NCBI RefSeq assembly: GCF_964213995.1
Contig: NC_135810.1
Location: forward strand, 24,304,001 to 24,368,000
Direction of reading: 5' to 3'
Length of the DNA stretch: 64,000 nt
From: Mustelus asterias
Lineage: Eukaryota
The position numbers and the translations under genes were made by a program. Positions 2,808 to 64,000 of this stretch are shown piece after piece. The notes beneath the pieces were generated by a model that searched no databases, was not told the DNA's origin, and saw only the letters and a program-made list of their open reading frames with translations. Within the stretch, counting starts at the first letter, position 1, and the number at the start of each line of letters is the position of its first letter.

Positions 2808-3264
2808 AGCCGGAATTTTACCATCCCGCCCATCACAGGAATTGGGGGCGGATCGTGGAAAGGTCCATTGACCTCGGTTTAATCATAGAATCCCTAAAGT
2901 ACAGAAGGACACCCTTCAGCCCACCGAGTCTGTACTGACCACAATCTCACCCAGGCCCTATTCCCATAGACCCACACATTTACCCTGCCAATCCTCCTGA
3001 CACTAAGTGGCAATTTAGCATGGCTAATCAACCTAACCCACACATCTTTGGCGTGTGGGAGGAAACCGGAACACCCAGAGGAAACCCATGCAGACACGAG
3101 GAGAAAATGTAGACTCCACACAGATACTGACCCAAGGTTGGAATTGAACCGGAGTCCCTGGCGCTGTGAGGCAACACTGCTAACCACTGTGCCACCATGC
3201 TGGTCGTGCCACCTCGGGCAGGATTTTATGATTTTGGGATGAGAGGAGCCATAAAATCCCTCCC
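2808..3264. mobile_element. Short TIR MITE split by a V-SINE
   Basis: Ends agccggaattttacc / ataaaatccctccc; related uninterrupted copies at 3797-3909 and 19106-19229. Confidence 0.7.
2878..3210 (-). mobile_element. V-SINE (HE1-like) with CR1-type tail and 7-bp TSD ACCTCGG
   Basis: tRNA-like head, V-domain and gattctatga tail on the minus strand; ACCTCGG at 2871-2877 and 3211-3217. Confidence 0.9.
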
Positions 3265-3909: not shown

Positions 3910-4458
3910 ACGCACTGCCAGACCATGGGCCAATGTAGGTCATAAGCAAAGACATGATAGTGAATGTGACTTGGAGAAAGTGATGATTCAGGCATCAGAG
4001 TCTTGGTTGAATTGATTTTTTATGGATGGTGGAATATCACATCATGTGATCCAAAAGGATGTGGACATTTTCAGGGTATTTTGATGCATAAATTTGCACA
4101 TTATAACATAAAAGCAAAACCACAGATAGTGGAAATCAAAAATAAAAACAGAAAATGCTGGAAATACCCAACAGGCCTGGCAGCACACATGGAGAGAGAA
4201 ACAGTGTTAACAGCCTAAAGTTTTAATCGGGGATTTTGAAAGCTAGGGAGTAGATTCACTGTTCAATCAGGGATGGAAACCAAGTTCCCAATGCTGGAGA
4301 ACCCAGCTGATGGAAGGTCCTCCATCACTCAGTCATTGGCAGTTCCATTGGCCAAGGTAGTGGGGGGAGGGAGGCACTGACGACATTAAGATGAAGACAG
4401 CGAGGAACAAGAACAGGTAAATTACTTTTTTTAAGTGCCATAGCTGCCTAGTCATGAA

Positions 4459-4570
4459 CCCAGTAAGAGTTTTAACAACACCAGGTTAAAGTCCAACAGG
4501 TTTATGTGGTAGCAAATACCATTAGCTTTCAGAGCGCTGCTCCTTCGTCAGATGGAGTGGAAATCTGCTC
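4459..4570 (-). mobile_element. Short Penelope pLTR-type repeat with hammerhead, 7-bp TSD TCATGAA
   Basis: Same family as 12425-12619 and 26190-26380 (aaacctgttggactttaacctggtgttg); TCATGAA at 4452-4458 and 4571-4577. Confidence 0.75.
4519..4555 (-). ncRNA. Minimal type I hammerhead ribozyme motif
   Basis: Minus strand reads CCAU-CUGACGA-A-GGAGC-AGC-GCUCU-GAAA-GC-UA-AUGG, giving stem I CCAU/AUGG, stem II and a palindromic AGCU stem III. Confidence 0.75.
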
Positions 4571-11075: not shown

Positions 11076-12424
11076 AAAGTCTACAAGCTGTGCATAATTA
11101 ATCCACCATTGGCACAATAACAGATTCAGACAAGCATTGTAGGCAATGTGGATAATGCAGCCTCATATACGCACCCAGAAGCTGCCCAGCTTTTAACACT
11201 GTACACCAAGCGTGTGGCACCAGAGGATATTGGAAGTGGCAATGCAGAAAGCAAAGGCCAAAACAAGAGGTTCAACATCAAGAGAAACCCCAACCAGAGT
11301 CTAGACAGGTGCAGTGTTCCAAACATCCACGGCTCATACCAAACAGCATTAAACAGAATCCATGAAATATATAGCCAATTCATATGGCCAGATGGTGAGA
11401 ATGATATTCAGCATGATGAACATCAAAAATATATGGCACAGTGGTACCAACAGAAGCCTTTGTCACTGTCCAGGTTATTTGCCCATTGATGAAGGATCAG
11501 CATAACAGCATAACAAAACTGGATACTGGCGCACGTGCAAACATTTCTCTTCACATACTATATTTTCATGAAGATAGTCAATTAATGCTTTTTAATCAAT
11601 TGGCTGGAAACATAAATTTATCTTTTTAAAACAAACTTTTTAAAACACAAACTAAAGTGACTTGAACTCACAGCCAAGATGGTTATCTAATTGTCATCAC
11701 ATTCCAATGTTATTGAGATTGAGACAGCACGGGGGGGGGGATTCTCCCAACCTGCTGCACATCTCTAACTGCACAGTGGGCCAGGAGACTCAAGCAGAGG
11801 CTATGTAGCGAGCTTCCCATTGGGCACACGTGATCTAAAACACAGCATAGATAAAACAACCCTAGCCAGCATTCTGAAAACGTACAGCAGCCTCCAGCAA
11901 AGATCACTAGAACTAAAGCTAGATGGATAAGCAAATCCCCGATATGTTTCAGAGACTTGTAAATTTATTGCTCTTTTTTAAAGTACATTCAGATACAATG
12001 GGCAGGATTTTCTCGTTTTTGCACAGAGTGCTGGCGGAGGCGAGAAAACCAGTGTGCAGCTTAACGGCTGAACAGTTGGCTTTTCTCACCAGATAATCCA
12101 GCACTAGGTGTAAATAAACTGCAGGGCTGGCCCATGCCATCACGCTGGAGCTGGAAAAAGCTGGCAAAGCTCGGAATCCCAAGACCTCCACACCCACCCA
12201 CATGCACAAAGAACAAACAAAGAACAAAGAACAATACAACAAAGGACAAACCCCCCCATGGACTCCTTCCGCATGGTCACAGGGAAGCCCCCTCCCATAG
12301 CCCACAGACATGTCTTCCCCAAAATAGCTCTTCAAAAGGACCCCCAGAACTGTACGCTGGCACTGACCCTGGCATCTTGTGATTGCTCTCTGGCATGCCC
12401 CCTGGCATTTCCCCCTGGGTAGTC

Positions 12425-12619
12425 ATGATGTGGAAATGCCGGCGTTGGACTGGGATAAACACAGTAAGGAGTCTAACAACAGAAAGTTAAAGTCCAACAG
12501 GTTTATTTGGTAGGGTTTCCACTCCATCTGACGAAGGAGCAGCGCTCCGAAAGCTAGTGGCGTTTGCTACCAAATAAACCTGTTGGACTTTAACCTGGTG
12601 TTGTTAGACTCCTTACTGT
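12425..12619. mobile_element. Inverted (fold-back) Penelope pLTR-type repeat containing a hammerhead
   Basis: 53-bp inverted arms 12461-12513 / 12567-12619; flanking 13-bp direct repeat atttccccctggg (12407-12419, 12620-12632); lies inside a MITE-like segment starting gggcaggattttct at 12001. Confidence 0.75.
12524..12560 (+). ncRNA. Minimal type I hammerhead ribozyme motif
   Basis: CCAU-CUGACGA-A-GGAGC-AGC-GCUCC-GAAA-GC-UA-GUGG; predicted cleavage after A12556. Confidence 0.8.
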
Positions 12620-13709
12620 ATTTCCCCCTGGGAGCAGTACCAGGTCAATGCCAGGGTATTGCCTGGATATGTCCCTCTGCGCCCCCCCCCCCCCACCCCC
12701 CCCCACCCCAGGGCTGTACTTTTCTGTGTGCCTTGGGTGGTTTCACTTTGCCTGGTTGCCGTTTTCACAAAGCTGTTGTAAATCTCATTGATGTGACATC
12801 ACATCGGCAAGGGGGGGGATCCCAATGTGGGGACACCATATGGCAGGAAAGCCCTTTAATGATATAACTTACTTAAATGAAGCTCCCAACCTTTCTAGGG
12901 AGCGACTTCATTACGTCAATGGCAGGGACAATCACACCACGAGATCTCATCGCCATGGTTCTCATTTTGGAGCTTTCTGGGTGATCACGAGTGCTCCAAA
13001 TGTTATCGTGTTTTGCTGTCATACCAAAATAGTTTTATTCCTTTAGGGTAAACCATTAGTTAAAAAAAGAGGGGGATGGTATGATATGATGTGCATGCAC
13101 CTTTAAGGAACATGCTGTCAATAATTTCTACCTCTACAGGATATGATGTATTGAACCCAAGACTTGTAGGCAGTCTGTAAACTGCAGTTATTGAGGACAG
13201 ATACGTGCCTCAAAGTGTCCCAATTAAATCTGTCTGTCGTCCTATCTTCAATAAAGAATTCACATTAGTGTGTGTCCAATACATGTGTATGATTGGGATG
13301 TTTATGTCAAAGAAAAGAAGAATGTATTACCCATGTACTTTTAGTTCCAGTCTTGGTGTTTGCTTAATCTAGTTCCAAAAAATTCTTGTTCTGTATTTTG
13401 TCAACAGCAAAATCGTCAGCTCAAAGGAATAGATCCCCACCCACGTTAGTGCCATTGTTGTAACACCACAGTAGCTGCTGCTATTCCCATGGCTACCTAC
13501 TGCTATTATACAATCAATTTAAACTTTCTTCTTTAGTAAATCTCTAGCTAAAATGTAAGTATTTTTCTAAATGGAATCAGCTTTGAAACTCCCGTAGTTT
13601 TCATTACGGCCATTTTATTTCTCCTCCAGAGGATCTGATGCCTTCCTGGGTTACAGTTGCACAGGCACTTGGCACACCCTAAAATATAATGTACAGCCAT
13701 GCTTCAGTG

Positions 13710-13905: not shown

Positions 13906-14201
13906 GAATTTAATCTGCTATTATTCCTGGGAACACAACTAGGTTTAGCATCTTCTGATATCTCTTGGCTGAGATTTGGATCATACCGTGTGAGAGTTTC
14001 TTCGGCATAGCTAGGTTAGCATGGGAACTCTGAGGCATCTATAATTTTATCATATGACTTTGATTACTTAAGGAAATGTAAACAATTTAAGAGGCAAGTT
14101 CATACTTATTGTGACTGCTGACCAGGAGTTGATGGGGACAATGAGATCCACTTTCACCTCTAACCATAGTGGTTAGCAATGCTAACCACTATGCTACCGT
14201 G

Positions 14202-14570
14202 GGGCGGCACGGTAGCATAGTGGTTAGCACTGCTGCTTCACAGCTCCAGGGACCTGGGTTCGATTCCCGGCTCAGGTCACTGCCTGTGCGGAGTTTGCAC
14301 ATTCTCCCCGTGTCTGCGTGGGTTTCCTCCGGGTGCTCCGGTTTCCTCCCACAGTCCAAAATGTGCAGGTTAGGTTGATTGGCCAAGCTAAATTGTCCCG
14401 GGTTGTGTAGATTAGAGGGATTAGTGGGTAAATATGAGGGTTAGAAGGATTAGCAGGTAAAAAAAAATGTAGGGTTAGGGGAATAGGGCCTGGGTGGGAT
14501 TGTTGTCAGTGCAGACTCGATGGGCCGAATGGCCTCTTTCTGCACTGTAGGGTTTCCATGGTTTCTATAC
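14202..14570 (+). mobile_element. V-SINE (HE1-like), full length, CR1-type tail
   Basis: Head gggcggcacggtagcatagtggttagc (A box), ggttcgattccc (B box), V-domain tgggtttcctccgggtgctccggtttcctcccac. Confidence 0.92.
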
Positions 14571-15623: not shown

Positions 15624-15952
15624 GGGGCGGCACGGTGGCACAGTGGTTAGCACTGCTGCCTCACAGTATCAGGAACCTGGGTTCAATTCCGGCCTCGAGT
15701 CACTTTCTGTGTGGAGTTTGCATATTCTCTCTGTGTCTGTGTGGGTTTCCTCTGGGTGCTCCGGTTTCCTCCCACAGTCCAAGGATGTGCGAGTTAGGTT
15801 GATTGGCGGTGCTAAATTGACCCTAGAGTCAGGGGGATTAGCAGGGGTTATGTGGGGTTATGGGGATAGGGCTTGGGTGGGATTGTGGACAGTGCAGACT
15901 CGATGGGCCAAATGGTTCCCTTCTGCACCGTTAGTGTTCTATGATTCTATGA
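15624..15952 (+). mobile_element. V-SINE (HE1-like), full length
   Basis: A/B boxes, V-domain and ttctatgattctatga tail. Confidence 0.92.
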
Positions 15953-22840: not shown

Positions 22841-23740
22841 ACATAGAACATAGAACATAGAACAGCACAGCACAGAACAGGCCCTTCGGCCCACGATGTT
22901 GTGCCGAGCTTTATCTGAAACCAAGATCAAGCTATCCCACTCCCTATCATCCTGGTGTGCTCCATGTGCCTATCCAATAACCGCTTAAATGTTCCTAAAG
23001 TGTCTGACTCCACTATCACTGCAAGCAGTCCATTCCACACCCCAACCACTCTCTGCGTAAAGAATCTACCTCTGATATCCTTCCTGTATCTCCCACCACG
23101 AACCCTATAGTTATGCCCCCTTGTAATAGCTCCATCCACCCGAGGAAATAGTCTTTGAACGTTCACTCTATCTATCCCCTTCATCATTTTATAAACCTCT
23201 ATTAAGTCTCCCCTCAGCCTCCTCCACTCCAGAGAGAACAGCCCTAGCTCCCTCAACCTTTCCTCATAAGACCTACCCTCCAAACCAGGCAGCACCTTGG
23301 TAAATCTCCTCTGCACTCTTTCCAGCGCTTCCACATCCTTCTTATAGTGAGGTGACCAGAGCTGCACACAATATTCCAAATGTGGTCTCACCAAGGTCCT
23401 GTACAGTTGCAGCATAACCCCACGGCTCTTAAACTCCAACCCCCTGTTAATAAAAGCTAACACACTATAGACCTTCTTCACAGCTCTATCGACTTGAGTG
23501 GCAACCTTTAGAGATCTGTGGATATGAACCCCAAGATCTCTCTGTTCCTCCACAGTCTTCAGAACCCTACCTTTGACCCTATAATCCACATTTAAATTCG
23601 TCCTACCAAAATGAATCACCTCACATTTATCAGGGTTAAACTCCATTTGCCATTTTTCAGCCCAGCTTTGCATCCTATCTATGTCTCTTTGCAGCCTACA
23701 ACAGCCCTCCACCTCATCCACTACTCCACCAATCTTGGTG
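22841..23740 (-). mobile_element. CR1 (HER1-like) LINE, 5'-truncated, open ORF2 C-terminus
   Basis: 264-aa ORF 22927-23721 (WQMEFNPDKCEV, LVRPHLEYCVQ, FFTQRVV); (gttctat)n tail. Confidence 0.95.
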
Positions 23741-25940
23741 GTGTGTGTTGTACTAAAGCCTGCTGCCTGTGTCGTTTAGAAGGTCTTTGGCGGGGGTGAC
23801 AGTAGTGGTGAGGTCCAGCAACTATTAAGATTAATGGACTGGCAATCTGAACCCTTGCCCCTGCCTGTTCTCCATCCTTCGACTCCTCTCCGGCCTTTTC
23901 CTTCACTCCTTAATGAACTACCTCCTCACACAAGTGTAAAGGCTGGACAGCATCAAGATCTCAGAATGATGCAGCCTGAGTAAAATGGGTACCTATTAGT
24001 CTGCCTATTTCTGAAGCAGTAAGTAATTGTGCCCTCATGAATTAACCTTGAACAATGTCAGCTGCCCACAGTCTCAAAGTCAAGAATGGGGTGAATACCC
24101 ATGTTTCAAGGATAAACATTTGGGTGCATGGGATCCAGAGGGAATGTGTCTGCACAAATGCTGGATCACAGCACCTGCTATTGAGGATGTGTTATCCCTC
24201 AAGCTGGATTTAACCGTCCAGTTGACATTGCCTGTGAGGGATGGGTGACAATTATTTTATGGTTTCCCCTGTGTAAGTTGTTAACTTAGCTGCAGTTCTC
24301 TTTAAATTGAATGGCTGAGCTCCTTCTCTCAAGTATATGCTGACCCATTGCAGTTGCAGATGCTCCAGTATCTACTTCCATCTTAAGAGTCTTTCCATTT
24401 AACAGGAGCTTTATCATAATAGGGCCTCTTTTGCCCACTTTCACATTAAACAGGAAGTGAACAACTAAGTCATTGATGCTCGCTTCTTCCACATTATATA
24501 CGTATGCCGCTCTACTTAATCGACTACTGGGTAGACTTGACTTGCTTTTGCACCGATGCCTTAAATGGCCTTTCTTGTGACAGAAAAAATATCCAGTCTC
24601 TTTATACCTGCAGGATTCAGGAAAGTGGTTACCCCCACATTGGAATCATTCTGCTTCAAGTTTGCCAATTGATTTCCTCTTCTAAATCTTCTTGCTTTAT
24701 TTGTGGTTAAAATTGCTTCCCACTTCACTACTACATCCTTGGTGCCACTGCTGACTGCAAATTCTGGCCCTGACTAGTGAAAGGTGTCATTTTCATGCTT
24801 TGTAACTCCTGTGCACCCTTTTCAGTGTTCTCCATTGCCCGCGTTATCTTCAATATTCACTTAAAAGTTGTATCTGCTTCTGCTGGTAATTTCCATTGAA
24901 TAATCTTAATTATTCATCCTGCAGACTAATCTGCCCCACAATATATCATTCAAAGTGGCTCCAAAGTTGCAGTGCTCCAAGATGTGCTTCAACTTGATGA
25001 TTTAAGTTGCAATAGTTTCCTCTGGGGCTTTCCCCATTGAATTAAACTAAACCACTGCAATATGACCAATGATTTCTGATGGAAATATGACTTTGCCAAT
25101 TCAATGATCTTACTGAATTACTTGCAGTTGGGCGCGCTTGGGTTTATGAGACCTTAAATCAGATTGTAAGCCTGTGACCCACACAGACTCAGCAGGATTG
25201 CCTTTCTCGTCCCCAGCTCCTCTGTTTCATTGGCCTGAAAGTGATAGCCTAAATGCTCTATGTATTGTGTCCAGTCCTCCACATAGGCATCAAAAGGATC
25301 TATCCATCCAAATTGCAGCATTTTTAAAATTACTCTAAGGGAGGTGTTGGCATAATGGTATTGTCACTGGACTAGTAATCCAGAGATCCAGGTTTTGAAT
25401 CCTACCATGGTAGATGGTGAAATTTGAATTCAGTAAAAATCTTGAATTTAAAAAAGTCTAATGATGACCATGAAACCATGGTCGATTGTCCACTAATGTC
25501 TTTTAAGGAAAGGAAATCTTTCATCCTTACCTGGTCAGGCCAACATGTAATACCAGATCCACAGTAATGTGTTTGCTCTTGAAATGACCTCAGGGATCGG
25601 CAATAAATGATGGCCCAGCCAGCTATGCCCAAATCCCATAAATGAATAAAAACAAACTTCACTCAACTTCAATGGAAGTGGTATAACTATAGTTCAAGGC
25701 TCGCTTTTACCTTTGTTGCCAATGTAATAATTCTTCTTCACCAGTTAAGGGAAAAACAACAGATTTATTAACTGGTAAAGGCTGGTACAGGGTCTTGCAG
25801 CCTTCTGGAACAGAAACTCTCTGCTTCCCGGGGTGAACCCGCAACCCGACCCCAGATTGGTTTCCCACGTCGTGAATATGCATCAACCCATCACTCATTG
25901 GTCCATTCTTCCCTTCCTTGAAGGAAATAAATCACAGAGC
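23740..25940 (-). mobile_element. Decayed Gypsy-type LTR retrotransposon (5' LTR, PBS, gag, protease)
   Basis: Protease MEVDTGAS (24286-24492); gag start MLQFGWIDPFDAYVEDWTQYIEHL at ~25321; PBS-like TTGGCAACAAAGG next to ...TTACA at 25723; polyA signal within the putative LTR. Confidence 0.72.
25338..25655 (+). mobile_element. tRNA-derived SINE, second family, nested in the Gypsy leader
   Basis: Homologous to 16460-16820. Confidence 0.75.
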
Positions 25941-26189: not shown

Positions 26190-26380
26190 AACAATTATCT
26201 TGTAAATTGAGTTTGTGTCTGTATATGTCCTGTTTGTGAACACAACTCCTCACTCATCTGAAGAAGGAGCTTGAGACTTCGAAAGCTTGTGCTGCCAAAT
26301 AAACCTGTTGGACTTTAACCTGGTGTTGTGAGACTTCTTACTGTGCTTATCCCTGTCCAACGCCGGCATCTCCACATCAA
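26190..26380 (+). mobile_element. Penelope pLTR-type repeat with hammerhead motif (26255-26291)
   Basis: CAU-CUGAAGA-A-GGAG..CUUC-GAAA-GC-UU-GUG followed by aaataaacctgttggactttaacctggtgttg...ccaacgccggcatctccacatca. Confidence 0.75.
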
Positions 26381-36571: not shown

Positions 36572-36957
<386 letters not shown>

Positions 36958-42291: not shown

Positions 42292-43322
42292 GGGCACGAT
42301 GTTACCAATCGGAACATAAGGGCGGGATCTGGGCGTAATACAGATCCGAGCCCGGAATTCTCTTTCCAGCGCGCCCATACGCGTTTTGGCGGCTCCGGTC
42401 CGATTCGTGCTGTGGACGGGGCTTAGCGCTGCAGGAACGATGGGAGCTCTGAACTGCGCATGTGCAGTTCGAAAAAAATCTGAAACAGCGCGCCCGGGCA
42501 CGAAAGAAAAAAGCAAAGAGAGCGGCTTTCTGACACAGGCCATCTGTGTGGGGCGGGGGGGTGAGGGGGGGGGAGGAGAGTGGGTGTGACGTATCATCCT
42601 CTGGGGGCGGGGGTGGTGTGACCGATCATCCCCTTGGGTGGGGGGGTGGGAGGGGAGGAGGTGTGGCCGATCATCCCCTGGAAGGGGGGGGTGTGGTGGG
42701 AGGGGAGGGGGTGTGACCAATTATCCCAGGGGGGCGGTGGTGGGAGGGGAGGGGGTGTGGCCGATCATCCCCGGGGAGGGGGGAGTGAGACAGGGTGGCA
42801 GCAGACCCCCTCCCTAGGGGATGATCGGTCACACCCTCTCCCCTCCACCCCCCCCCCCCCACCCCCCCGGGATGATCGGTCACACCCTCTCCCCTCCCCC
42901 CCCACCCCCCGGGATGATCGGTCACACCCCCTCCCCTCCCACCCCTCCTCCCAGTGGATGACCTGGGTCAGAGAGCCGTTGCAGTCTCCGACCCTGCTTT
43001 TCGGAGGCTGCAGCAGCGACTTTGGATTTTTTTTCGGCAGGTCGATTACAGCGCGGATCCGCATCGGACCAGAAGACGGTAAAGTGGGATTTGGCGGTAG
43101 AGTTGGGCGCGCGGTTCATTCAGTCGATTTAAATGCATGCAAATGCATTTAAATCGTCGGGCCGGCCGATTCGGGCGCGCGCCGGACCCGCGCCCAAATC
43201 GGGTGTCGGTAAAGCCGCAATCTGCTTGGAATCGGGTGCAGATCGCGGTATAGGCCCGACGCCCAACTTTACCGCGATTCCGCACCCGAAAACAGGCACG
43301 AAGGTTTGGTAAAATCGGGCTC
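42292..43322. mobile_element. Non-autonomous PIF/Harbinger-like element (family H1), no OPA1 cargo
   Basis: TIRs gggcacgatgttacca / tggtaaaatcgggctc; flanks ATA/ATT; core is a mirror-arranged (gatgatcggtcacacccc)n minisatellite. Confidence 0.85.
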
Positions 43323-45534: not shown

Positions 45535-48500
45535 CCATAAGATATAGGAGCAGAATTAGGCCATTCAGCCCATCAAATCTGCTCCACCATTCAATAATGA
45601 CTGGTAGGTTTCTCAACCCCGTTCTCCCGCCTTTTCCCCGTAACGTTTGATCCCCTTGCCAATCAAGAACATATCTATTTCTATCTTAAAAATTCAATGA
45701 CCTGGCCTCCACGTCCTTCTGTGGCAATGAATTTCATAGATTCACTACCCTCTGGCTGAAGAAATTCCTTCTCATCTCGGTTCTAAAGTGTGGTCCCTGC
45801 TACCCTTCTTAAACAACGGGACCACATTCGCTATCCTCCAATCCTCAGGGACCTCACCCGTGTCCAAAGAAGCGACAAGCCGGATTAGGCAGGAATTGGT
45901 GGATGTTGATTGGGAGAGGATGTTCAAGGGTAAGTCCGTGTCTGGCATGTGGGAGTCTTTTAAGGAACTATTGATAAGGCTGCAGGATAGGCATGTGCCT
46001 GTAAAAAGGAAAGATAGGAAAGGTAGGATTCGAGAGCCGTGGATAACCAGGGAAATTGAGGATCTGATTAAAATGAAAAGGGAGGCGTACGTTAAGTCCA
46101 GGCAACAGAAAACAGATGGAGCTCTGGAGGAATACAGAGAGAGTAGGAAAGAACTCAAACGGGGAGTTAGAAGGTCAAAAAGAGGTCACGAGATGTTCTT
46201 GGCAGGCAGGATTAAGGAGAATCCTAAGGCATTCTATTCATACGTTAGGAACAAAAGAGTTGTCAGGGAGAAAATCGGACCTCTCAGGGACAAAGGAGGG
46301 GAATTATGCTTAGAACCCAAGGGAATAGGGGAGATCCTAAATGAATACTTTGCATCGTATTCACGAAGGAGAGGGGCGTGTTAACCGGGAGTGTCTCGGA
46401 GGGAGGTGTTGACCCGTTCGAGAAACTCTCCATTACAAGAGAGGAAGTGTTAGGTTTTTTAGGGAACATTAAAACTGACAAAGCCCCAGGGCCTGATGGC
46501 ATCTATCCTCGACTGCTCAGGGAGACGAGAGATGAAATTGCTGGGCCTCTGACGGAAATCTTTGTCGCTTCTTTGGACACGGGTGAGGTCCCTGAGGATT
46601 GGAGGATAGCGAATGTGGTCCCGTTGTTTAAGAAGGGTAGCAGGGATAACCCAGGAAATTATAGGCCAGTGAGCTTGACGTCTGTGGTAGGGAAGTTGTT
46701 GGAGAGGATTCTTAGAGACAGGATGTATGTGTATTTAGAAAGGAACAATCTCATTAGTGACAGACAGCATGGTTTTGTAAGAGGGAGGTCGTGCCTTACA
46801 AATTTGGTGGAGTTTTTTGAGGAAGTGACAAAAACGGTTGATGAAGGAAGGGCCGTGGATGTCGTCTATATGGATTTCAGTAAGGCATTTGACAAAGTCC
46901 CACATGGCAGGTTGGTTAAGAAGGTTAAGGCTCATGGGATACAAGGAGAAGTGGCTAGATGGGTGGAGAACTGGCTTGGCCATAGGAGACAGAGAGTAGT
47001 GGTCGAACGGCCTTTTTCGGCTGGAGGTCTGTGACCAGTGGTGTTCCGCAGGGCTCTGTACTGGGACCTCTGCTATTTGTGATATATATAAATGATTTGG
47101 AAGAAGGTGTAACTGGTGTAATCAGCAAGTTTGCGGATGACATGAAGATGGCTGGACTTGCGGATAGCGAAGAGCATTGTCGGGCAATACAGCAGGATAT
47201 AGATAAGCTGGAAAATTGGGCGGAGAGGTGGCAGATGGAGTTTAATCCGGATAAATGCGAAGTGATGCATTTTGGAAGAAATAATGTAGGGAGGAGTTAT
47301 ACAATAAATGGCAGAGTCATCAGGAGTATAGAAACACAGAGGGACCTAAGTGTGCAAGTCCACAAATCCTTGAAGGTGGCAACACAGGTGGAGAAGGTGG
47401 TGAAGAAGGCATATGGTATGCTTGCCTTTATAGGACCGGGTATAGAGTATAAAAGCTGGAGTCTGATGATGCAGCTGTATAGAACGCTGGTTAGGCCACA
47501 TTTGGAGTACTGTGTCCAGGTCTGGTCGCCACACTACCAGAAGGACGTGGAGGCGTTAGAGAGAGTGCAGAGAAGGTTTACCAGGATGTTGCCTGGTATG
47601 GAGGGTCTTAGCTATGAGGAGAGATTGGGTAAACTGGGGTTATTCTCCCTGGAAAGACGGAGAATGAGGGGAGATCTAATAGAGGTGTACAAGATTATGA
47701 AGGGGATAGATAGGGTGAACGGTGGGAAGCTTTTTCCCAGATCAGAAGTGACGATCACGAGGGGTCACGGGCTCAAGGTGATTGGGGCGAAGTATAACTC
47801 AGATATTAGAGGGATGTTTTTTACACAGAGGGTGGTGGGGGCCTGGAATGCGCTGCCAAGTAGGGTGGTGGAGGCAGGCACACTGACATCGTTTAAGACT
47901 TACCTGGATAGTCACATGAGCAGCCTGGGAATGGAGGGATACAAACGATTGGTCTAGTTGGACCAAGGAGCGGCACAGGCTTGGAGGGCCGAAGGGCCTG
48001 TTTCCTGTGCTGTACTGTTCTTTGTTCTTTATTCTGAAGTTATGCTCTCAGATCTAAGTCTCTCCTACTAATGGAAACGTCTTTCCCAAATCCACTCTAT
48101 CCAGACCTTTCAATTGTCTATAAATTACAATGAGGTCCCCCCTCATCCTTCGAAACTCCATGGAGCACAGACCCAAACTCCTCAAACACTCCTCATCCGT
48201 CAAGTTTTCATTCCTGTGTTCATTCTTATGAACCTCCTCTGGACCCTCTCCAGGGCCAGCACATCCTTCCTCACATACGGGGCCCAAAGTTGTTCACAAT
48301 ACTCCAAGTGTGGTCTGACCAGAGCCTTATAAAGTACATCTCTGCTTTTGTATCCTCGTCCTTTTGAAATGAATGCTAACATTGCATTTGCCTTCCTAAC
48401 TATCAACTCAACCTGCAACTTAACCTTAAGAGAATCCTGAACTAGGACTCCCAAGTCCCTTTGCACTTCCAATTTCTGAATTTTCTCCCCATTTAGAAAA

Positions 48501-49160: not shown

Positions 49161-49629
49161 TTACTGTGACAGAAATATTTTAAAGGGAATTTGCTAAATA
49201 TAAGTGCAAATATGGAGGGATCTGGGCAAAAGATGGTGAATAGAGCAAGAAAAGAGAATACTGGAACATGCATAAGATTATTATGTCCTTTTGTGCAGTA
49301 TTTTGTATTTTATTATCATCTAAAATGAGGCACCCTTTAACTGAATTGATTTTTTAAAAGATTTGTCAAAAGCGTAAAAAGAAGGTACTTTAATTGATGG
49401 CTACAATATACTGTGAAAGACAATCTCACATATCTGGTCAGCATGGTTTCAAGTACTGTGAAAAAGTAATCAAATCATTTAAGAAAAACAGTAAATTCTT
49501 GCTGACATTGAAACATGAACAATTCCCTCAAGTCAAATGTCTAATCCTGGATTATTGTCAATGGCTGACTAGTACATGCGCAACACTCTGCGTCGCCCAA
49601 TCACCACTTAAAGGGACCATACACCTTTT

Positions 49630-49668
49630 AGCTTTGATAAAGGGTCGTCTGGATTTGAAACGTCAGCT
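49630..49668 (+). ncRNA. Minimal hammerhead ribozyme motif, U3-A8 variant
   Basis: AGCU-UUGAUAA-A-GGGUC..GAUUU-GAAA-CG-UC-AGCU; palindromic ACGU stem III and GUC cleavage triplet. Confidence 0.65.
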
Positions 49669-50963
49669 CTTTTCTCTCCTTACAGATGCTGCAGACCTGC
49701 TGAGATTTTCCAGCGTTTTCCCTTTTGGTTTCAGCTTCCAGCATCTGCAGTAATTTGCTTTTATCCAGTGTTTAACTCGCTGCCACTTCTCTTCCAGGAA
49801 TACTTACCCTGAAGAAGTACTGCTCTTCTCTCTGATAGGATTTCCGTGTGTCTCTCCCACCCCCCCATCCCCCCCCCCACCCCCGCCGCCCCCCGACATC
49901 ACTGCTTTCCATTTTTCTCTTAGCGCTGGACAAGGTATTTACCAAGACTCGCTTCCGCAGCCACATTTCCTTCCTCAGTGACTGTCTTCGTCGCCGACTT
50001 ACCCCTCGTGGATTTCAACTCAAATTCCTCCCCACATGACACCTCCAGGAATACAGGTCCCTCTTGGATTTACAACATTCTTTGAACTGCTGTTCTCACC
50101 ACATCCTGAAAGCCACACTCAGTTCCACGCGCCGCCACATGAAGGCACTCGACATCTCTCGCCAGCAGCACTGTATTACTCTCTCTCAAAGTTGTCCCTG
50201 TCCCCAGTTTCATTTCATCCTAAGCATCATTCGACGTCTCAACAAAAAACTTTTCCTGTTTCTTGCAGATGCAAAGGAACGCAAGCTTCAACAACTTATC
50301 AACACCATTTCCCATGCCAGGCCCTCCACCAGTCCCAATCCCTCGAACTACGTCTCTTCTAGCTCCAGCCCTTGCCGTGTCTTCAGCATACCCTCTGACC
50401 TTCCCCTCTCTAAGGCTGAGCGTGCTGTTCTCAGCAAAGGACACAGCTTTGTACCTTTACCTCCCCATCTCAATGAATTCTGAGCTCCACATGATGTTGA
50501 ACTCTTATTCCGCCGCCTTCATATCCGTGTCCACTTCTTTGGGCAAGAGTCCTCCCCCAGTTCCACAGATCCTTTCACATGCCTCCAACATTCTGCCTGC
50601 AATTGGACACCCCCACTGGGACAATTACCTGCCCTCGATCTTTTCATTGGGAACTGTCGTCAGGACATTGGCCATCTCAATTTTTCTGCCCCCCCCCTCA
50701 CCCATTCCAACCTCTCTCCTTCTGAACTTTCCGCCCTTCGCTCCGTCAGGTCCAACCCTGACATTGTCATCAAACCGGCCAACAAATGGGGTGTTGTTGT
50801 TGTCTGGCATGCTGACCTCTACCTCGCAGAGGCTGAGCGCCAACTCTCAGATACTTCCTCCTACCTCCCCCGGACCATGACAACACTAAACATCAAGCCA
50901 TTATCTCCAACACCGTCACCAACCTCATTTTCTCCAGATGCCTTTCCCCAACAGTTCCCAATC

Positions 50964-52911
50964 TCATAGTCATAGAGGTTTACAGCATGGAAACAAGCCC
51001 AACTTGTCCATGCCGCCCTTTTTTTAAAAACCCCTAAGCTAATCCCAATTGCCCGCATTTGGCCCATATCCCTCTCTACCCATTTTATCCATGTAACTAT
51101 CTAAATGCTTTTTAAAAGACAAAATTGTGCCCACCTCTACGACCACCTCTGGCAGCTTGTTCCAGACATTCACTACCCTCTGTGTGAAAAACTTGCCCCT
51201 CTGGACACTTTTGTATCTCTCCCCTCTCACTTTAAACCTATACCCTCTAGTTTTAGACTCCCCTACCTTTGGGAAAAGATATTGACTATCTAGTTGAACT
51301 GTGCCCCTCATTATTTTATAAACCTCTATAAGTTCACCCCTCAGTCTTCTACGCTCCAGAGAAAAAAGTCTCAGTCTATCCAGCCTCTCCCTATAACTCA
51401 AACCATCAAGTCCGGATAGCATCCTAATAAATCTTTTCTGCACTCTTTCTAGTTTAATAATATCCTTTCTATAATAGGGTGACCAGAACTGTACACAGTA
51501 TTCCAAGTGTGGCCTTACCAATGTCTTTAGGCCACATTTGGAGTACTGCGTCCAGTTCTGGTCGCCACACTACCAGAAGGACGTGGAGGCGTTAGAGAGA
51601 GTGCAGAGAAGGTTTACCAGGATGTTGCCTGGTATGGAGGGTCTTAGCTATGAGGAGAGATTGGGTAAACTGGGGTTGTTCTCCCTGGAAAGACGGAGAA
51701 TGAGGGGAGATCTAATAGAGGTGTACAAGATTATGAAGGGGATAGGTAGGGTAAACGGTGGGAAGCTTTTTCCCAGATCAGAAGTGACGATCACGAGGGG
51801 TCACGGGCTCAAGGTGAGAGGGGCGAAGTATAACTCAGATATTAGAGGGATGTTTTTTACACAGAGGGTGGTGGGGGCCAGGAATGCGCTGCCAAGTAGG
51901 GTGGTGGAGGCAGACACGCTGACATCGTTTAAGACTTACCTGGATAGTCACATGAGCAGCCTGGGAATGGAGGGATACAAATGATTGGTCTAGTTGGACA
52001 AAGGAGCCGCACAGGCTTGGAGGGCTGAAGGGCCTGTTTCCTGTGCTGTACTGTTCTTTGTTCTTTGTTCTTTTGTTTGTACAACTTCAACAAATCCCAA
52101 CTCCTGTATTCAATGTTCTGACCGATGAAAGCAAGCATGCTGAATGCCTTCTTCACCACTCTGTTCACCTGTGACTCAACTTTTAAGGAGCTATGAACAT
52201 GTACCCCTAGATCTCTTTGTGCTGTAACTCTCCCCAATGCCCTACCATTAACTGAGTAAGTCCTGCCCTGGTTCAATCTACCAAAATGCATCACCTCGCA
52301 TTTATCTAAATTAAATTCCATCTGCCATTCATCAGACCACTGGCCCAATTGATCAAGATCCAGTTGCAATCGGAGAAAACTTTCTTCACTGTCCACTATG
52401 CCACCAATCTTGGTATCATCTGCAAACTTACTAACCATGCCTCCTATATTCTCATCCAAATCATTAATATAAATGACGATAACAGTGGACCTAGCACTGA
52501 TCCCTGAGGCACACCGCTGGTCACAGGCCTCCAGTTTGAAAAACAACTTCTGTCAAGAAGCCAATTTTGTATCCAATTAGATACCTCACCCTGGATCCCG
52601 TGAGATTTAACCTTATGCAACAATCTACCATGTGGTACCTTGTCAAAGGACTTGCTAAAGTCCATGTAGCCAACATCAACTGCACCGCCCTCATCAACCT
52701 TCTTGGTTACCCCTTCAAAAAACTCAATCAAATTGGTGAGACATGATTTTCCACTCACAAAACCATGCTGACTGTCCCTAATCAGTCCTTGCTTCTCTAA
52801 ATGCCTGTAGATCCTGTCTCTCAAAATACCTTCCAACTACTTACCCACCAAAGATGTGAGGCTCACTGGCCTGTAGTTCCCAGGCTTTTCCCTGCAGCCC
52901 TTTTTAAACAA
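50964..52911 (-). mobile_element. CR1 LINE inserted in the Penelope element, itself split at 51527-52076
   Basis: ORFs 52444-52836, 51929-52546 and 51039-51521 carry RT motifs (QHGF, FADDTK); (ctatga)n tail. Confidence 0.93.
51527..52076 (+). mobile_element. Young CR1 3' end, near-identical to 47491-48029
   Basis: ORF 51538-51984; about 14 substitutions in ~540 bp by eye. Confidence 0.95.
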
Positions 52912-55332
52912 AGTCTCCCAACCCCAGACAGTCCGCTTCTACCTCCTTCCCAAAATCCACAAAAAGGACTGTCCTGGTGGGCCCATTGTGTCAGCATGCT
53001 CCTGCCCCACTGAACTTATTTCCTCTTGCCTTGACTCCATCCTCACTTCCCTGGCCCATTCCCTCCCCACCTACATCCGGGATTGCTCTGATGCACTGTA
53101 TCATATTGACAGCTTTGAGTTCGCAGACCCTAACCGCCTCCTATTCACCATAGATATGCAATCTCTCTACATCTCCATCCCACACCAGGACAGCCTGGGA
53201 GCTCTTCACTTCTTTCTTGAAAAGAGGTCTGAATAATTCCCATCCATCATCACTCTCCTACGCCTGGCTCAACTCATTCTATCTCTCAACAACTTCTCCT
53301 TTAACCCATCCCATTTTCTCCAAATCAAAGGAGTAGCAATGGGTACCCACATGGGTCCTAGCTATGCTTGTCTTTTTGTGGGGTATGTGGAACATTCCTT
53401 GTTCCAAGCCTACCTGGATCCCCTCCTACAACTCCTTTGCCAGTACATCGATTACTATTTTGATGCCACTTCATGCTCTCTTCCAGACCTCGAAAAATTC
53501 ATCAACTTTGCTTCCAGTTTCCACCCCTCCATCGCTATCACCTGGTCCATCTCAGACACTTCCCCTCCCTTCCTTGACCTTTCTGTCTCCATTTCCGGTA
53601 ATAGACTATCTACCAATATCCATTACAAGCCCACTGACTCCCACAGCTATCTGGACTACAGCTCTTCACACCCCACATCATGTAAGGACTCCATCTCTTT
53701 CTCTCAGCTCCTTCGCCTCCATCGCATTTGTTCCGATGATGTCACTTTCCAAAGTGGTGCTGCTAATATCCTCCTTTATCCTCAACTGTGGATTCCCATC
53801 TACAGTTGCCGACAGGGCCCTCAACAGCGTGCAGTCCATCTCCCTCACCCCCTCCCTTCCCTCCCAGAACAAGGATAGAGTCTCCCTTGTTCTCACATTT
53901 CACCCCACCAACCTCCGCATGCAAAGTATAACCCTCTGCCATTTTCGCCAACTCCAGTGTGATGCCAACACCAAACACATCTTGTCTTCACTCCCTCTGT
54001 CAGCATTCTGCAGAGACCATTCCCTCCGGGATAACCTAGTCCACTCCTCCACTATATCCAACACCTCTCCCGTCACTCATGGCACCTTCCCATGCAATCA
54101 CAGAAGGTGTAACACCTGTCCCTTTACCTCTTCTATGCTCACCATCCAAGGCCCAAAACATTAATTCCAGGTTAAGCAGCATCTCATTTGCACCTCTTTC
54201 AATTTGGTCTATTGTATTCGCTGCTCCCAATGTGGTCTCCTCTATATCGGAGAGACCAAGCGTAGACTGGGTGATCACTTTGCTGAGCACCTTCGGTCTG
54301 TGCACAATCAGGACCCTGACCTTCCGGTTGCTTGCCATTTTAACAGACGATCCTGCTCCCATGCCCACACACCTGTCCTTGGCTTGCTGCAATGTTCCAG
54401 TGAAGCTCAATGCAAACAGGAGGAACAGCATCTCATCTTACAACCTTCTGGTCTCAACATTGAATTCAACAACTTCAGATGATTTGCTCTGCCCTACCTC
54501 AACCCCCTTTATTTTCATTCTATTTTATTTTTTAAAATTTTACTGTTTTCTACCTTTTATTTCTTTATTGTCTTTCTTCATTTTTCTTCCCCCCCCCCCT
54601 ACTCTTTCCCCCCACTTTATCCCCCTTCCTTTACCATTTCTCCCCCCGCTTTCCCTTTTCTACATTCTATCTCTGTCCCATCTACCCCCCCACCTCCCCC
54701 CCGGGAATCGTGGCATGCGTGCCGGTAAAATTCCAGCATATGATTCTCTGATTTCAATTAAGAAAGCTGTATTAAAAGTATAAAACAGCAGAACCAGTAC
54801 TTGTTTCAGAAAAATAGCAAGCAAGACAATTGAGTAAATAAGATGGAGCATAACGTATAGATGTTGACAAGTACACCAGGGGTAACATCAGGGTAACTGC
54901 ATGCATAATTTTCTCGAGCATCTTGTGGTGAGAGAGGTAAGTTGGATGTTTTTACCTCACTCTTCAGCTATGGTTATTTTTTACACTGCAAATTACTAAA
55001 AGTACAAATTGATCATGCAAGATCAACAGAGCATCCAGAAACTTGGTGAATGGCAGGACCAGTACTTTATCTCATTGACGAAAGTGATTTCAGGATACAG
55101 AAAGAAACAGAGCAAATGATGAAGATGAAATAGTGTGAATTAGAGTCAAATTAAATGCAGATTGTCTTATGACTATTCGAGGAGGGATAAAAACTGATTC
55201 CTCTAATTTACCACACCAGCTCTGGGGGCTTGATGTGAATTCAGCGAAGATGTGCTTAGCCAATGCTGAGGGAGTCCCATTATAGAACTAAAGGAAAGTT
55301 GCAGTGCAGAAAGAGAAGATCGTTCAGCTAAT

Positions 55333-55702
55333 TGTGTCTGAGCCAGCTAACAGGGGCGGCACGGTAGCACAGTGGTTAGCACTGCTGCTTCACAGCTCCA
55401 GGGACCTGGGTTCGATTCCCGGCTTGGGTCACTGTGTGGAGTTTGCACATTCTCCTTGTGTCTGTGTGGGTTTCCTCCGGGTGCTCCGGTTTCCTCCCAC
55501 AGTCCAAAGATGTGCGGGTTAGGTTGATTGGCCATGCTAAAATTGCCCCTTAGTGTTATGAGATGCGTAGGTTAGAGCGATTAGTGGGTAAATATGTAGG
55601 GATATGGGGGTAGGGCCTGGGTGGGATTGTGGTCGGTGCAGACTCGATCAGCCGAATGGCCTCCTTCTGTACTGTAGGGTTTCTATTTCTATTTCTATTT
55701 CT
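55333..55702 (+). mobile_element. V-SINE (HE1-like), full length
   Basis: Head, V-domain and (ttctat)n tail. Confidence 0.92.
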
Positions 55703-56276: not shown

Positions 56277-56410
56277 GTTTCGAGTCTGGATGCAGACTCG
56301 AAGCATTAACTCGATTCTCTCTCCACAGATGCTGCCAGACTTGCTGAGATTTTCCAGCATTTTCTGTTTGTGCTTCAGATTCCAGCATCCACTGTCATTT
56401 GTTTTTATTT
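56277..56410 (+). mobile_element. Penelope pLTR fragment with a 5' fold-back
   Basis: ttcgagtctg-gatg-cagactcgaa hairpin followed by ccacagatgctgccagacttgctgagattttccagc, matching 49680-49765. Confidence 0.7.
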
Positions 56411-59842: not shown

Positions 59843-60186
59843 AATCATAGAAACCCAACAGTACAGAAAGAGGCCATTCGGCCCATCGAGTCTGCACCGA
59901 CCACAATCCCACCCAGGCCCTACCCCCATATCCCTATACATTTGCCCACTAATCCCTCTAACCTACACATCTCAGGACACTAAGGGCAATTTTTTTAGCA
60001 TAGCCAATCAACCTAGCCCGCACATCTTTGGACTGTGGGAGGAAACCGGAGCACCCGGAGGAAACCCACGCAGGCACAAGGAGAATGTGCAAACTCCACA
60101 CAGACAGTGACCCAAGCCGGGAATCGAACCCAGGTCCCTGGAGCTGTGAAGCAGCAGTGCTAACCACTGTGCTACCATGCCGCCCT
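59843..60186 (-). mobile_element. V-SINE (HE1-like), full length
   Basis: Head, V-domain and CR1-type tail. Confidence 0.92.
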
Positions 60187-60879: not shown

Positions 60880-63040
60880 AGCATAGAAAAATAGCAGCAG
60901 GAGTAGACCATTTGACCCAATCTCAATGATTGAACATCCACAGCCCTATGGAGCAGGAAATTCCAAAGATTCACACCACCCACTGAGTGAATAAATTCTT
61001 CTTGATCTCAGTCTTAAACAGCCTGCCCCTTATTCTGAGATAAAGCCCATTGTTTCAGACACAACAGCTGGAGAAACCATCCTATCCACATCTCCCTTCC
61101 ATCCCTTGCAAGAATTTTGGAGGTTTCAATGAGATCCAAACTGTAAAAAATACAGGCCCAGTCTTCTCAATCTCTCATCATAAGTCAATCTTGCCATCCC
61201 AGAGATTAGCCTGGTGAAATCTTTATGAAAAGTATACCATTCCATAGATAAAAGTAGATTCCAGAGATAAGGAGGCCAAAGGAATACACAATGCTCCAGG
61301 CACGGTCTCACCAATGTTCTATATAATTGCAGCAAGACATCTTAACACCTATACTCAAACTCTATTGTATGATTGCCAGCATGTCATTTGCCTTCCTAAT
61401 TACTTGCTGCAACTGCATGTTAGCTTTTGGTGACTTATGAACAAGGACACCCAGATCCCTTTGGACATCAATATTTCCCAAACTCTCACAATTGAAAACA
61501 TATTTTGCCTTTCTGTTTTTTTCCAACCAAAGTGGATGACGTCATATTATATTCCAGCTGCCATGTTCTTGGCCACTTACTTAACCTGTTCAAATTCTCT
61601 TGAAGCCTCCTTGTATCCTCCTCACAACTTACATTCCCACCTATTTTTGTGCCTACAGCAAACTTGTAAACATTACATTTGGTCCCCACATCCAAATCAT
61701 TTGTATAGATTATGAAGAGATGTTGTCCCAACACTGAACCTTCCCCTACCCCATTAGTGACATCTTCCAACACTGAGAATGACCTGTTTATTTCCATTCT
61801 CTGTTTTAACCAATTCTCAAAACACAGCATTATATCATTCCCAATCCCATGTGATCTAATACTGTTTGGACCTTATTAAAAGTGTTCCGGAAATCGAATT
61901 ACAGCACATTCACGTGTTCTCTTTTATCTATGCTATTGCTAATGTCCTCAAAAAACTCCAACAGGTCTGTCAAATATAATTTTCCATTCATAAACCCATG
62001 TTAACTCTGTGCAATTGTTTCATTATTTTCTAGTTATCCCAGCGTTTATAATGGATTCAAATTATTTTTGACAGCTGACAGCAGACTAACAGGTCTGTAG
62101 GTCTATGTTTTCCTCCTCCTTCCCTTCTTAAATAATGGAGTCACATTTGTTACTTTCCAAATTGCAGGAACTTTTACAGAACCTACAGAATTTTGAAAGA
62201 TAGCAACAAATGCATCCATTTTTGCGATAGCCACCTCATTCAACACTCTGGGTGTAACTTATCAGGTCCAAGGGATTTATAATCTTTTAAGTTCAACCTC
62301 TTTATTAATACTAATTTCTTTCAGATCCTCACTTACCCAAATCCCTTGGTTCCCGTGTGTCTCTGGGAGGTTTTCTGCACCTTTCTGTGAGAATGGAGAC
62401 ACAAAGCAATTGTTTAGTTTCTTCGCTATTTCCTTGTTCTCCGTCTGTCTCTGCCTGTAGTTGCCTTGTTGGAATCATAGAATCTCTATAGTGCAAAAGG
62501 AGGCCATTTGGCCCATCTAGCCTGCACTGACTACAATCTCACCCAGGCCCTATCCACATAACCCCACTTGTTTTCCCTGCTAACCTCTGACACTAAGGGT
62601 CAATTTAGCATGGCCAATCAACCTAACCCACACATCTTTGGATTGTGGGAGGAAATCAGAGCACCTGGAGGAAACCCACGCAGGCACGGGGAGAACATGC
62701 AAGTTCCACACAGAGAGTGACCCAAGCCTGGAATTGAACCCAGGTCTCTGGCGCTTGAGGTAGCAGTGCTAACCATTGTGCAACCATGCCGCCACTTCTC
62801 TTTTTTCTTTTCACATACCTCGAGAGGCTTTTACATGTTTCTTGCTAACTATTGTTCATATTCTCATAGTTTTGTGTGCTCAGATTTAAGACCCCCGCTT
62901 CGGAATTAACTATATCACTTTCCAACTTTATGTACAATTTTGCATATTATGGTCTCTATTTCCTAAAAGCTCCTTTCGAGCAATGTTATTAATGATCACT
63001 CTCTCAATGCATAATGCTAAATCTAAAATAGCCTGATCCG
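60880..63040 (-). mobile_element. Old CR1 ORF2 fragment with a nested V-SINE
   Basis: LQLYRTLVRPCLEHC; VTNGVGEGSVLG..KFAVGTKIGG. Confidence 0.8.
62472..62795 (-). mobile_element. V-SINE (HE1-like)
   Basis: Head, V-domain and tail. Confidence 0.9.
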
Positions 63041-63534
63041 TAGTCCCATCGGGAGTCAGTGGGGGCAGGCATAAGAAACAAGACATTCAGGCCACATTCA
63101 GATCAGACATACTCATGTTGCATACAGGTCAGGCTCAATGGATTGCACGGCCTCCACCTGCTCCTATTTTGTATGATCATAATCTTGTGGAGGTGACGGG
63201 GGGGGGGGGGCGTCTCAGCCATCGGCTGGAGAGTCGGCGAGAGCGGGAAGGCCCACTGAATTCTGAGCCACTCAAGCATATATCGGGCTAGCCGTGAGCC
63301 TTCCCCAGGATCAAGGACCCTGGAGACTTGATCCCACCCACCAAAAACTGCTGACCAATCAAAGACGGTAGTTGTTTATGGTGAAGCATTTTGCCACTTT
63401 GCCACCAATCTCACTTTAGTTTTTCTCTGATATACAGAGCAGCCAATGTGTCAGGCAACCTTGAGCTGATACATTTTGGTCTGTCTTCAGCCCTTGATTT
63501 TGTTGCTTGGGACTTCCCCACAATTAAAAAAAAA

Positions 63535-63862
63535 GGGGCGGCACAGTGGCATAGTGGCTAGCCCTGCTGCCACACAGCATCAGGGACCCGGGTTCAGTTC
63601 CTGGCTTGGGTTACTGTCTATGTGGAGTTTGAATGTTCTCCCCGTGTCTGCGTGCATTTCTCCAGGTGCTCTGGTTTCCTCCCACAGTCCAAAGATGTGT
63701 GAGTTAGGTGGATTGGCCATGCTCAATTGCCTCTTAGTGTCAGGGGGATAGCTCGGGTAAATGCATGGGGTTATGCGGATAGAGCCTGGGTGGGATTTTG
63801 GTCGGTGCAGACTCGATGGGCCAAATGGCCTCCTTCTGCACTGTAGGGTTATGTGATTCTAT
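63535..63862 (+). mobile_element. V-SINE (HE1-like)
   Basis: Head, V-domain and tail. Confidence 0.9.
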
Positions 63863-64000
63863 AAGTAACACACTGGCCAATTATATGTTACATTCTGTGC
63901 TTGCTAAAACCCTTTCCTGTCACTTAATCTGCTTCAAATGAGGAAAAAAAAAATAGATCGACACTAAGGGATTTATTCAAGCCTACAGTATAGGACTTCC

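Follow-up and report, generated by a model that had tools for sequence, protein, structure and literature searches.

A 200-bp insert holding a minimal hammerhead motif in the genome of Mustelus asterias: a likely Penelope-like element insertion with both pieces cut short

Here we describe a 200-bp insert at positions 12420-12619 of a 64,000-nucleotide stretch of the Mustelus asterias genome (hereafter the window), which lies between two exact copies of a 13-bp target-site duplication (left copy 12407-12419, right copy 12620-12632, both on the plus strand). From left to right the insert consists of a 41-nt tail (12420-12460, minus strand) found at the left end only, a left arm (12461-12513, minus strand) which is an antisense copy of the 3' end of a repeat family and makes up a 94-nt piece together with the tail, and a 106-nt sense piece (12514-12619, plus strand) that is 5'-truncated 14 nt upstream of a hammerhead core and finishes at the tail-less family end. 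Within the sense piece, the stretch that the antisense piece also covers is the right arm (12567-12619, plus strand). The two arms are identical at 50 of 53 positions, and the 53-nt hairpin loop holds a complete minimal hammerhead. The three mismatches are clustered around 12482-12485 and look private to this copy, since the letters G12482 and A12483 are found in only a minority of the family's contigs. An earlier note on this DNA had reported the inverted arms around a ribozyme as well as the flanking 13-bp direct repeat, and both are borne out; it had placed the unit at 12425-12632; the structure is real, but the first base of the insert is 12420, and that interval does not take in the left copy of the repeat. 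An exact flanking repeat of at least 13 bp was found for one of 1490 random 200-bp intervals when 10 nt of slack were allowed at each end, an estimate slightly weakened by the position of the left copy within a short degenerate tandem (12382-12418). The duplication opens with ATT, and its right copy matches the start of the tail (12448-12460, minus strand) at 7 of 13 positions, a post hoc comparison at one site that 2.6% of the 13-mers in the window equal. The last bases of the tail include an ATG (12424-12426, minus strand) that may be the start of an open reading frame (ORF) of the element. The folding z-score of -9.9 (0 of 200 shuffles) is sufficiently explained by the inverted repeat alone.

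The hammerhead is of the minimal type I (12524-12560, plus strand), with its predicted cut between 12556 and 12557. The core CUGACGA (12528-12534) is followed by an extra A (12535), a stem II of 5 bp (12536-12540/12544-12548) with a 3-nt loop, GAAA (12549-12552) and the palindrome AGCU (12552-12555); A17 is A12556, and stem I has 4 bp (12524-12527/12557-12560), of which a U-G pair adjoins the core. All of these parts are present as the earlier note had listed them, and the position of the cut that it predicted, after A12556, is correct. A minimal-hammerhead descriptor gave three matches in the window, all of the repeat family of the insert, versus two in 300 dinucleotide-shuffled windows, and Rfam returned no hammerhead match at the gathering score or at E ≤ 10. 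According to PMC4209133, metazoan minimal hammerheads of Penelope-like elements (PLEs) share with this motif the core CUGANGA/GAAA/UH, a helix I of 4 bp, the extra base 9/10.1 (A12535), the G10.1-C11.1 pair (G12536-C12548) and the palindromic 15.2-16.2 (GC, 12553-12554), whereas helix II, of 5 bp here, has 7-8 bp in the families of Schistosoma; the results and discussion of that paper make no mention of sharks. Across the three window copies of the family, 25 of 27 stem cells are paired and no two-sided change is seen. At pair 2.1-1.1 the contig rows, which are separate rows and not single-contig reads, hint at C-G in other subfamilies versus U-A in copy B.

The two other family copies in the window carry the hammerhead without the inverted repeat. 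In copy B (4449-4565, minus strand, 5' end approximate) the tail is reduced to its last 9 nt, and copy C (26190-26379, plus strand, 5' end approximate) is more diverged and retains most of it. Alignment of the insert, which is copy A, to both of them gives a linear family order of hammerhead, about 60 nt and then the tail, which also occurs after copy C and in loose contig ends behind 12619. In this order the antisense piece (12420-12513, 94 nt) is the 41-nt tail plus the 53 nt upstream of it, and the 106-nt sense piece, which includes the hammerhead, stops where the tail would start; the inverted repeat is therefore the 53-nt overlap of the two pieces. Copies A and B both terminate at the same base of the tail. 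At 4449-4461 in copy B the start of the tail is fused to its last 9 nt, about 30 nt having gone, and possible causes are a jump between the two reverse-transcription start sites presumed below or a later deletion. We found no flanking duplication around copies B and C, no paralogous empty site within the 64-kb window and no tandem of the 200-bp unit at the locus, where there is a single hammerhead.

The locus was compared with public contigs from four of 21 listed runs, all of them assembled contigs. In organism B, X3 contig 9 matches the window over 11900-12419 (about 95% identity) and over 12717-13165 (about 97%), gaps aside, its first block reaching exactly the end of the left duplication copy. 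Between the aligned blocks it has 49 letters versus 297 in the window, so that this orthologous site has no room for the insert; without the insert 84 letters would be expected versus the 49 seen, in a stretch that includes a run of C. The left flank is partly uncovered in the contigs of X9 (organism C) and X7, where the state of the insert is unreadable, and the empty site is that of organism B only. The repeat family is very abundant: with 47,626 contig pieces of run X1 aligned, the summed depth is 1e5-1e7 on the insert versus about 3-30 in the adjacent flanks. The X1 contigs diverge behind 12617 (295 contigs) and behind 12619 (571 contigs) with low agreement, likewise those of X3 and X9; since hundreds of contigs part in this way, 12617-12619 is a recurrent end of the family, both with and without tail. 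Head-to-head joints were also recovered. Among the best 15 of 264, 14 run from antisense to sense, their centers differ, and the center of the insert (12513/12514) is absent; some of these listed joints show microhomology of 2-3 nt. The joints come from short contigs, and library fold-back chimeras may be among them.

We consider it likely that the insert is one endonuclease-positive (EN+) Penelope-like element insertion in a cartilaginous-fish genome, specific to its lineage and with both pieces cut short. The best reading is that the hairpin was built during this single insertion. Firstly, the endonuclease of the element would nick both target strands 13 nt apart, and each target 3' end would prime reverse transcription at one of two family start sites, the end and the start of the tail, 41 nt apart. 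Secondly, the two cDNAs would run inward, stop after 94 and 106 nt and then be end-joined, whereby their 53-nt overlap would become the inverted repeat. The hammerhead would lie in the loop only because one cDNA extended far enough to copy the ribozyme, and the template would be uncleaved RNA. Each outer end of the insert corresponds to the 3' end of a template segment, and these 3' ends are 41 nt apart. Dual-end priming with joining of cDNAs would account alike for the duplication, for a tail on one side only, for the sense polarity of the loop and for the variation of the centers. The duplicated 53 nt would require two templates or a tandem RNA, which is nearer to dual priming than to the twin priming of L1. 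L1 twin or dual priming likewise gives two inverted fragments inside one duplication with an internal junction (PMC2837659); however, the usual outcome of ordinary twin priming at the center is a deletion, not a duplication, so that L1 loses internal sequence, whereas the present insert has 53 nt in duplicate and lacks a poly(A).

Read from the tail end, the loop has sense polarity, and this bears on a different route to the same PLE stub, in which the inversion would stem from an antisense template, through self-priming or fold-back, or from a template switch in second-strand synthesis. Self-priming on an antisense template has been proposed for head-to-head PLE junctions (PMC3846280), and the near identity of the arms and the 2-3 nt microhomology in some of the listed joints would fit it. 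However, reasoning from the sequence, fold-back of the tail-primed cDNA would yield an antisense loop, and fold-back of the other cDNA could not provide the tail. Moreover, there is no palindrome at the junction of this insert, and both of its outer ends are recurrent family ends, which together make such a route unlikely. An origin of the inverted repeat after insertion, through two independent insertions or a local inversion-duplication, is at odds with the single exact duplication around both pieces, which adjoin each other without intervening host DNA, and the private differences of the left arm are unlike an assembly mirror; even though the family is very abundant and no listed contig of organism A spans the insert, we regard a later origin or an assembly artifact as extremely improbable.

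The earlier note had seen in this locus a mobile unit of about 200 bp resembling a retrozyme, a reading that the single hammerhead, the lack of a tandem of the unit and the lack of an inverted repeat in copies B and C speak against. In its fuller form, this reading holds that the 200 bp are a self-contained non-autonomous hairpin element, retrozyme-like or MITE-like, which is transcribed, cleaved and re-inserted whole. The clean duplication and the intact core are compatible with it, and the predicted probability of stem II, 0.34 when the left arm is absent, rises to 0.91 in the hairpin; yet in the same hairpin stem I reaches only 0.19-0.37, and two monomers (-26.2 kcal/mol) are more stable than the swapped active dimer that can be drawn (-20.7 kcal/mol). 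Some junction contigs of X1 have a depth of 130-380 versus about 13 for flank contigs, and some centers may recur at several loci, depth not being copy number. For a MITE-like element several copies with common ends and a common center would be expected, whereas the hairpin occurs in one of the three window copies and its center in none of the 15 joints listed out of 264. A non-LTR retrozyme would be a tandem of head-to-tail units, two or more of them in succession carrying a hammerhead each, and here there is one hammerhead and no tandem. With the animal non-LTR retrozymes, as described in PMC7229834 and bioRxiv 10.64898/2026.07.22.740005, the insert shares a type I hammerhead, a non-coding character, PLE pLTR ancestry and a size of about 200 bp; however, theirs are head-to-tail with a ribozyme in each unit, and ours is a head-to-head pair with one ribozyme. 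Taken together, we judge a self-contained element of this kind to be very unlikely. The supplementary family tables of bioRxiv 10.64898/2026.07.22.740005 include one chondrichthyan, and the repeat family of the insert may already be included there.

The link that the earlier note drew to the pLTRs of Penelope-like elements and their dimer-type hammerheads is supported by the anatomy of the motif and by the literature. Membership in the PLEs rests on ribozyme type and layout, since no RT or GIY-YIG ORF of the family was found: none lies beside the three family copies in the window, and the PLE ORF remains that the window does hold (49896-51019 and 52877-54479) adjoin none of them. A search with the tail peptide (a 41-residue frame) gave no candidate protein, its motifs occur in 0 of the 120 RT relatives retrieved, and pattern scans of viral, metagenome and prokaryote genome collections, as distinct from animal genomes, gave no match to the family. 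The head-to-head arrangement of copy plus tail is an already published PLE pattern. PLE insertions have been described with an inverted 5'-truncated copy and a tail of 30-40 bp, often at one end (PMC8557442), and with an inverted pLTR, a 31-bp tail and target-site duplications of 8-10 bp (PMC3846280). The insert shares with these complex EN+ insertions the inverted 5'-truncated copy, the tail at one end, the duplication and the hammerhead in the terminal repeat; in contrast, it is without any ORF, both of its pieces are about 100 nt long, its duplication is 13 bp (8-10 bp in the rotifer examples of PMC3846280) and its tail is 41 nt (30-40 bp in PMC8557442). In PAc, a Poseidon element of Anolis, the protein nicks each of the target strands and extends both, the tail is bounded by two RT start sites, and the template is mainly unprocessed RNA (PMC11167929). 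The likeness to PAc lies in the two start sites bounding the tail and in the cutting and extension of both strands, all of which are presumed in our case. The PAc endonuclease prefers 5'-ATT-3' (PMC11167929), with which the duplication of the insert starts, one site that may agree by chance. In PAc the hammerhead overlaps the start of the ORF and reverse transcription begins 111-118 nt into the ORF (PMC11167929), whereas in the insert the tail reaches 7 nt into the presumed ORF.

At this locus the motif is probably inactive, there being no second copy in cis, and the lone hammerhead copy is most likely an inert passenger. The hammerhead of the parent element probably cuts as a dimer or with the help of protein. 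PLE minimal hammerheads mostly occur as single motifs from truncated copies and show weak cleavage even as multimers (PMC4209133), and one of nine Xenopus retrozyme dimers was cleaved in vitro. Among the 15 listed joints, six have sense pieces that start at 12554-12558 (about 1.0 expected if uniform), and three start exactly at 12557, the first base past the predicted cut (about 0.2 expected); these rows are a selection, 3-nt microhomology accounts for two of them, the subfamilies vary at this very place, and some contigs may be chimeric. It is conceivable, if doubtful, that the fold-back stubs of the family record the ends of template RNAs and that this cluster of starts is a genomic footprint of minimal-hammerhead cleavage in vivo. 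PMC4209133 notes no in vivo evidence for cleavage, RNA-seq ends at the cut site were not found in PMC11167929, and a literature search at title level gave no report of such a footprint. If this were true genome-wide, stubs would mark cleavage by PLE minimal hammerheads in vivo and dual priming would be countable.

The insert is real, well-defined and ordinary, and as a single locus it matters little, being one of very many Penelope-type stubs. It is a clean specimen, in which 226 bp hold the two ends, the duplication and the two presumed RT start sites, with an empty orthologous site. Counts of stubs across the genome could separate dual priming from fold-back and could also be used to ask whether cleavage by the minimal hammerhead takes place in vivo.

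The window is rich in repeats. A dispersed repeat of about 330 bp, putatively a shark HE1-type SINE, is abundant (2881-3200, 14201-14568, 15624-15950, 55353-55692, 59843-60185, 62472-62804, 63526-63863 and others). No host exon was identified among 21 of 27 crude candidates scanned, which gave one sub-threshold match; the scan left out three candidates at 12712-12777 beside the run of C and three overlapping ones. LINE-type reverse-transcriptase fragments are found at 22845-23775, 45740-48035 (with RVT_1 at 46345-47031), 51039-52911 and 61310-61872, and the stretches 47491-48035 and 51527-52071 are 97% identical. At 49622-49760 (plus strand) lies a second terminal repeat, unrelated to the family of the insert, with partial copies at 56315-56408 (plus strand) and 4108-4185 (minus strand). 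It holds at 49634 a degenerate minimal hammerhead with a U3-A8 core, a variant known from Schistosoma (PMC4209133), and is directly upstream of the PLE ORF remains. These are broken RT and GIY-YIG remains on the plus strand, with LINE-type RT fragments between the two parts; the GIY-YIG match has an E value of 0.0014, below the Pfam cut-off, and the relatives carry RVT_1 and GIY-YIG. A CxxxxCxxC motif before the endonuclease, a clade feature according to PMC8557442, suggests that the broken ORF may belong to the Neptune clade. The best named relatives of the retroelement fragment at 53237-53875 are in sharks and rays, with 63-65% identity. Other self-inverted stretches of 60-440 bp and 69-90% identity, outside the family of the insert, occur at 36621-36890, 42626-42961, 51304-51740 and 14175-14234.
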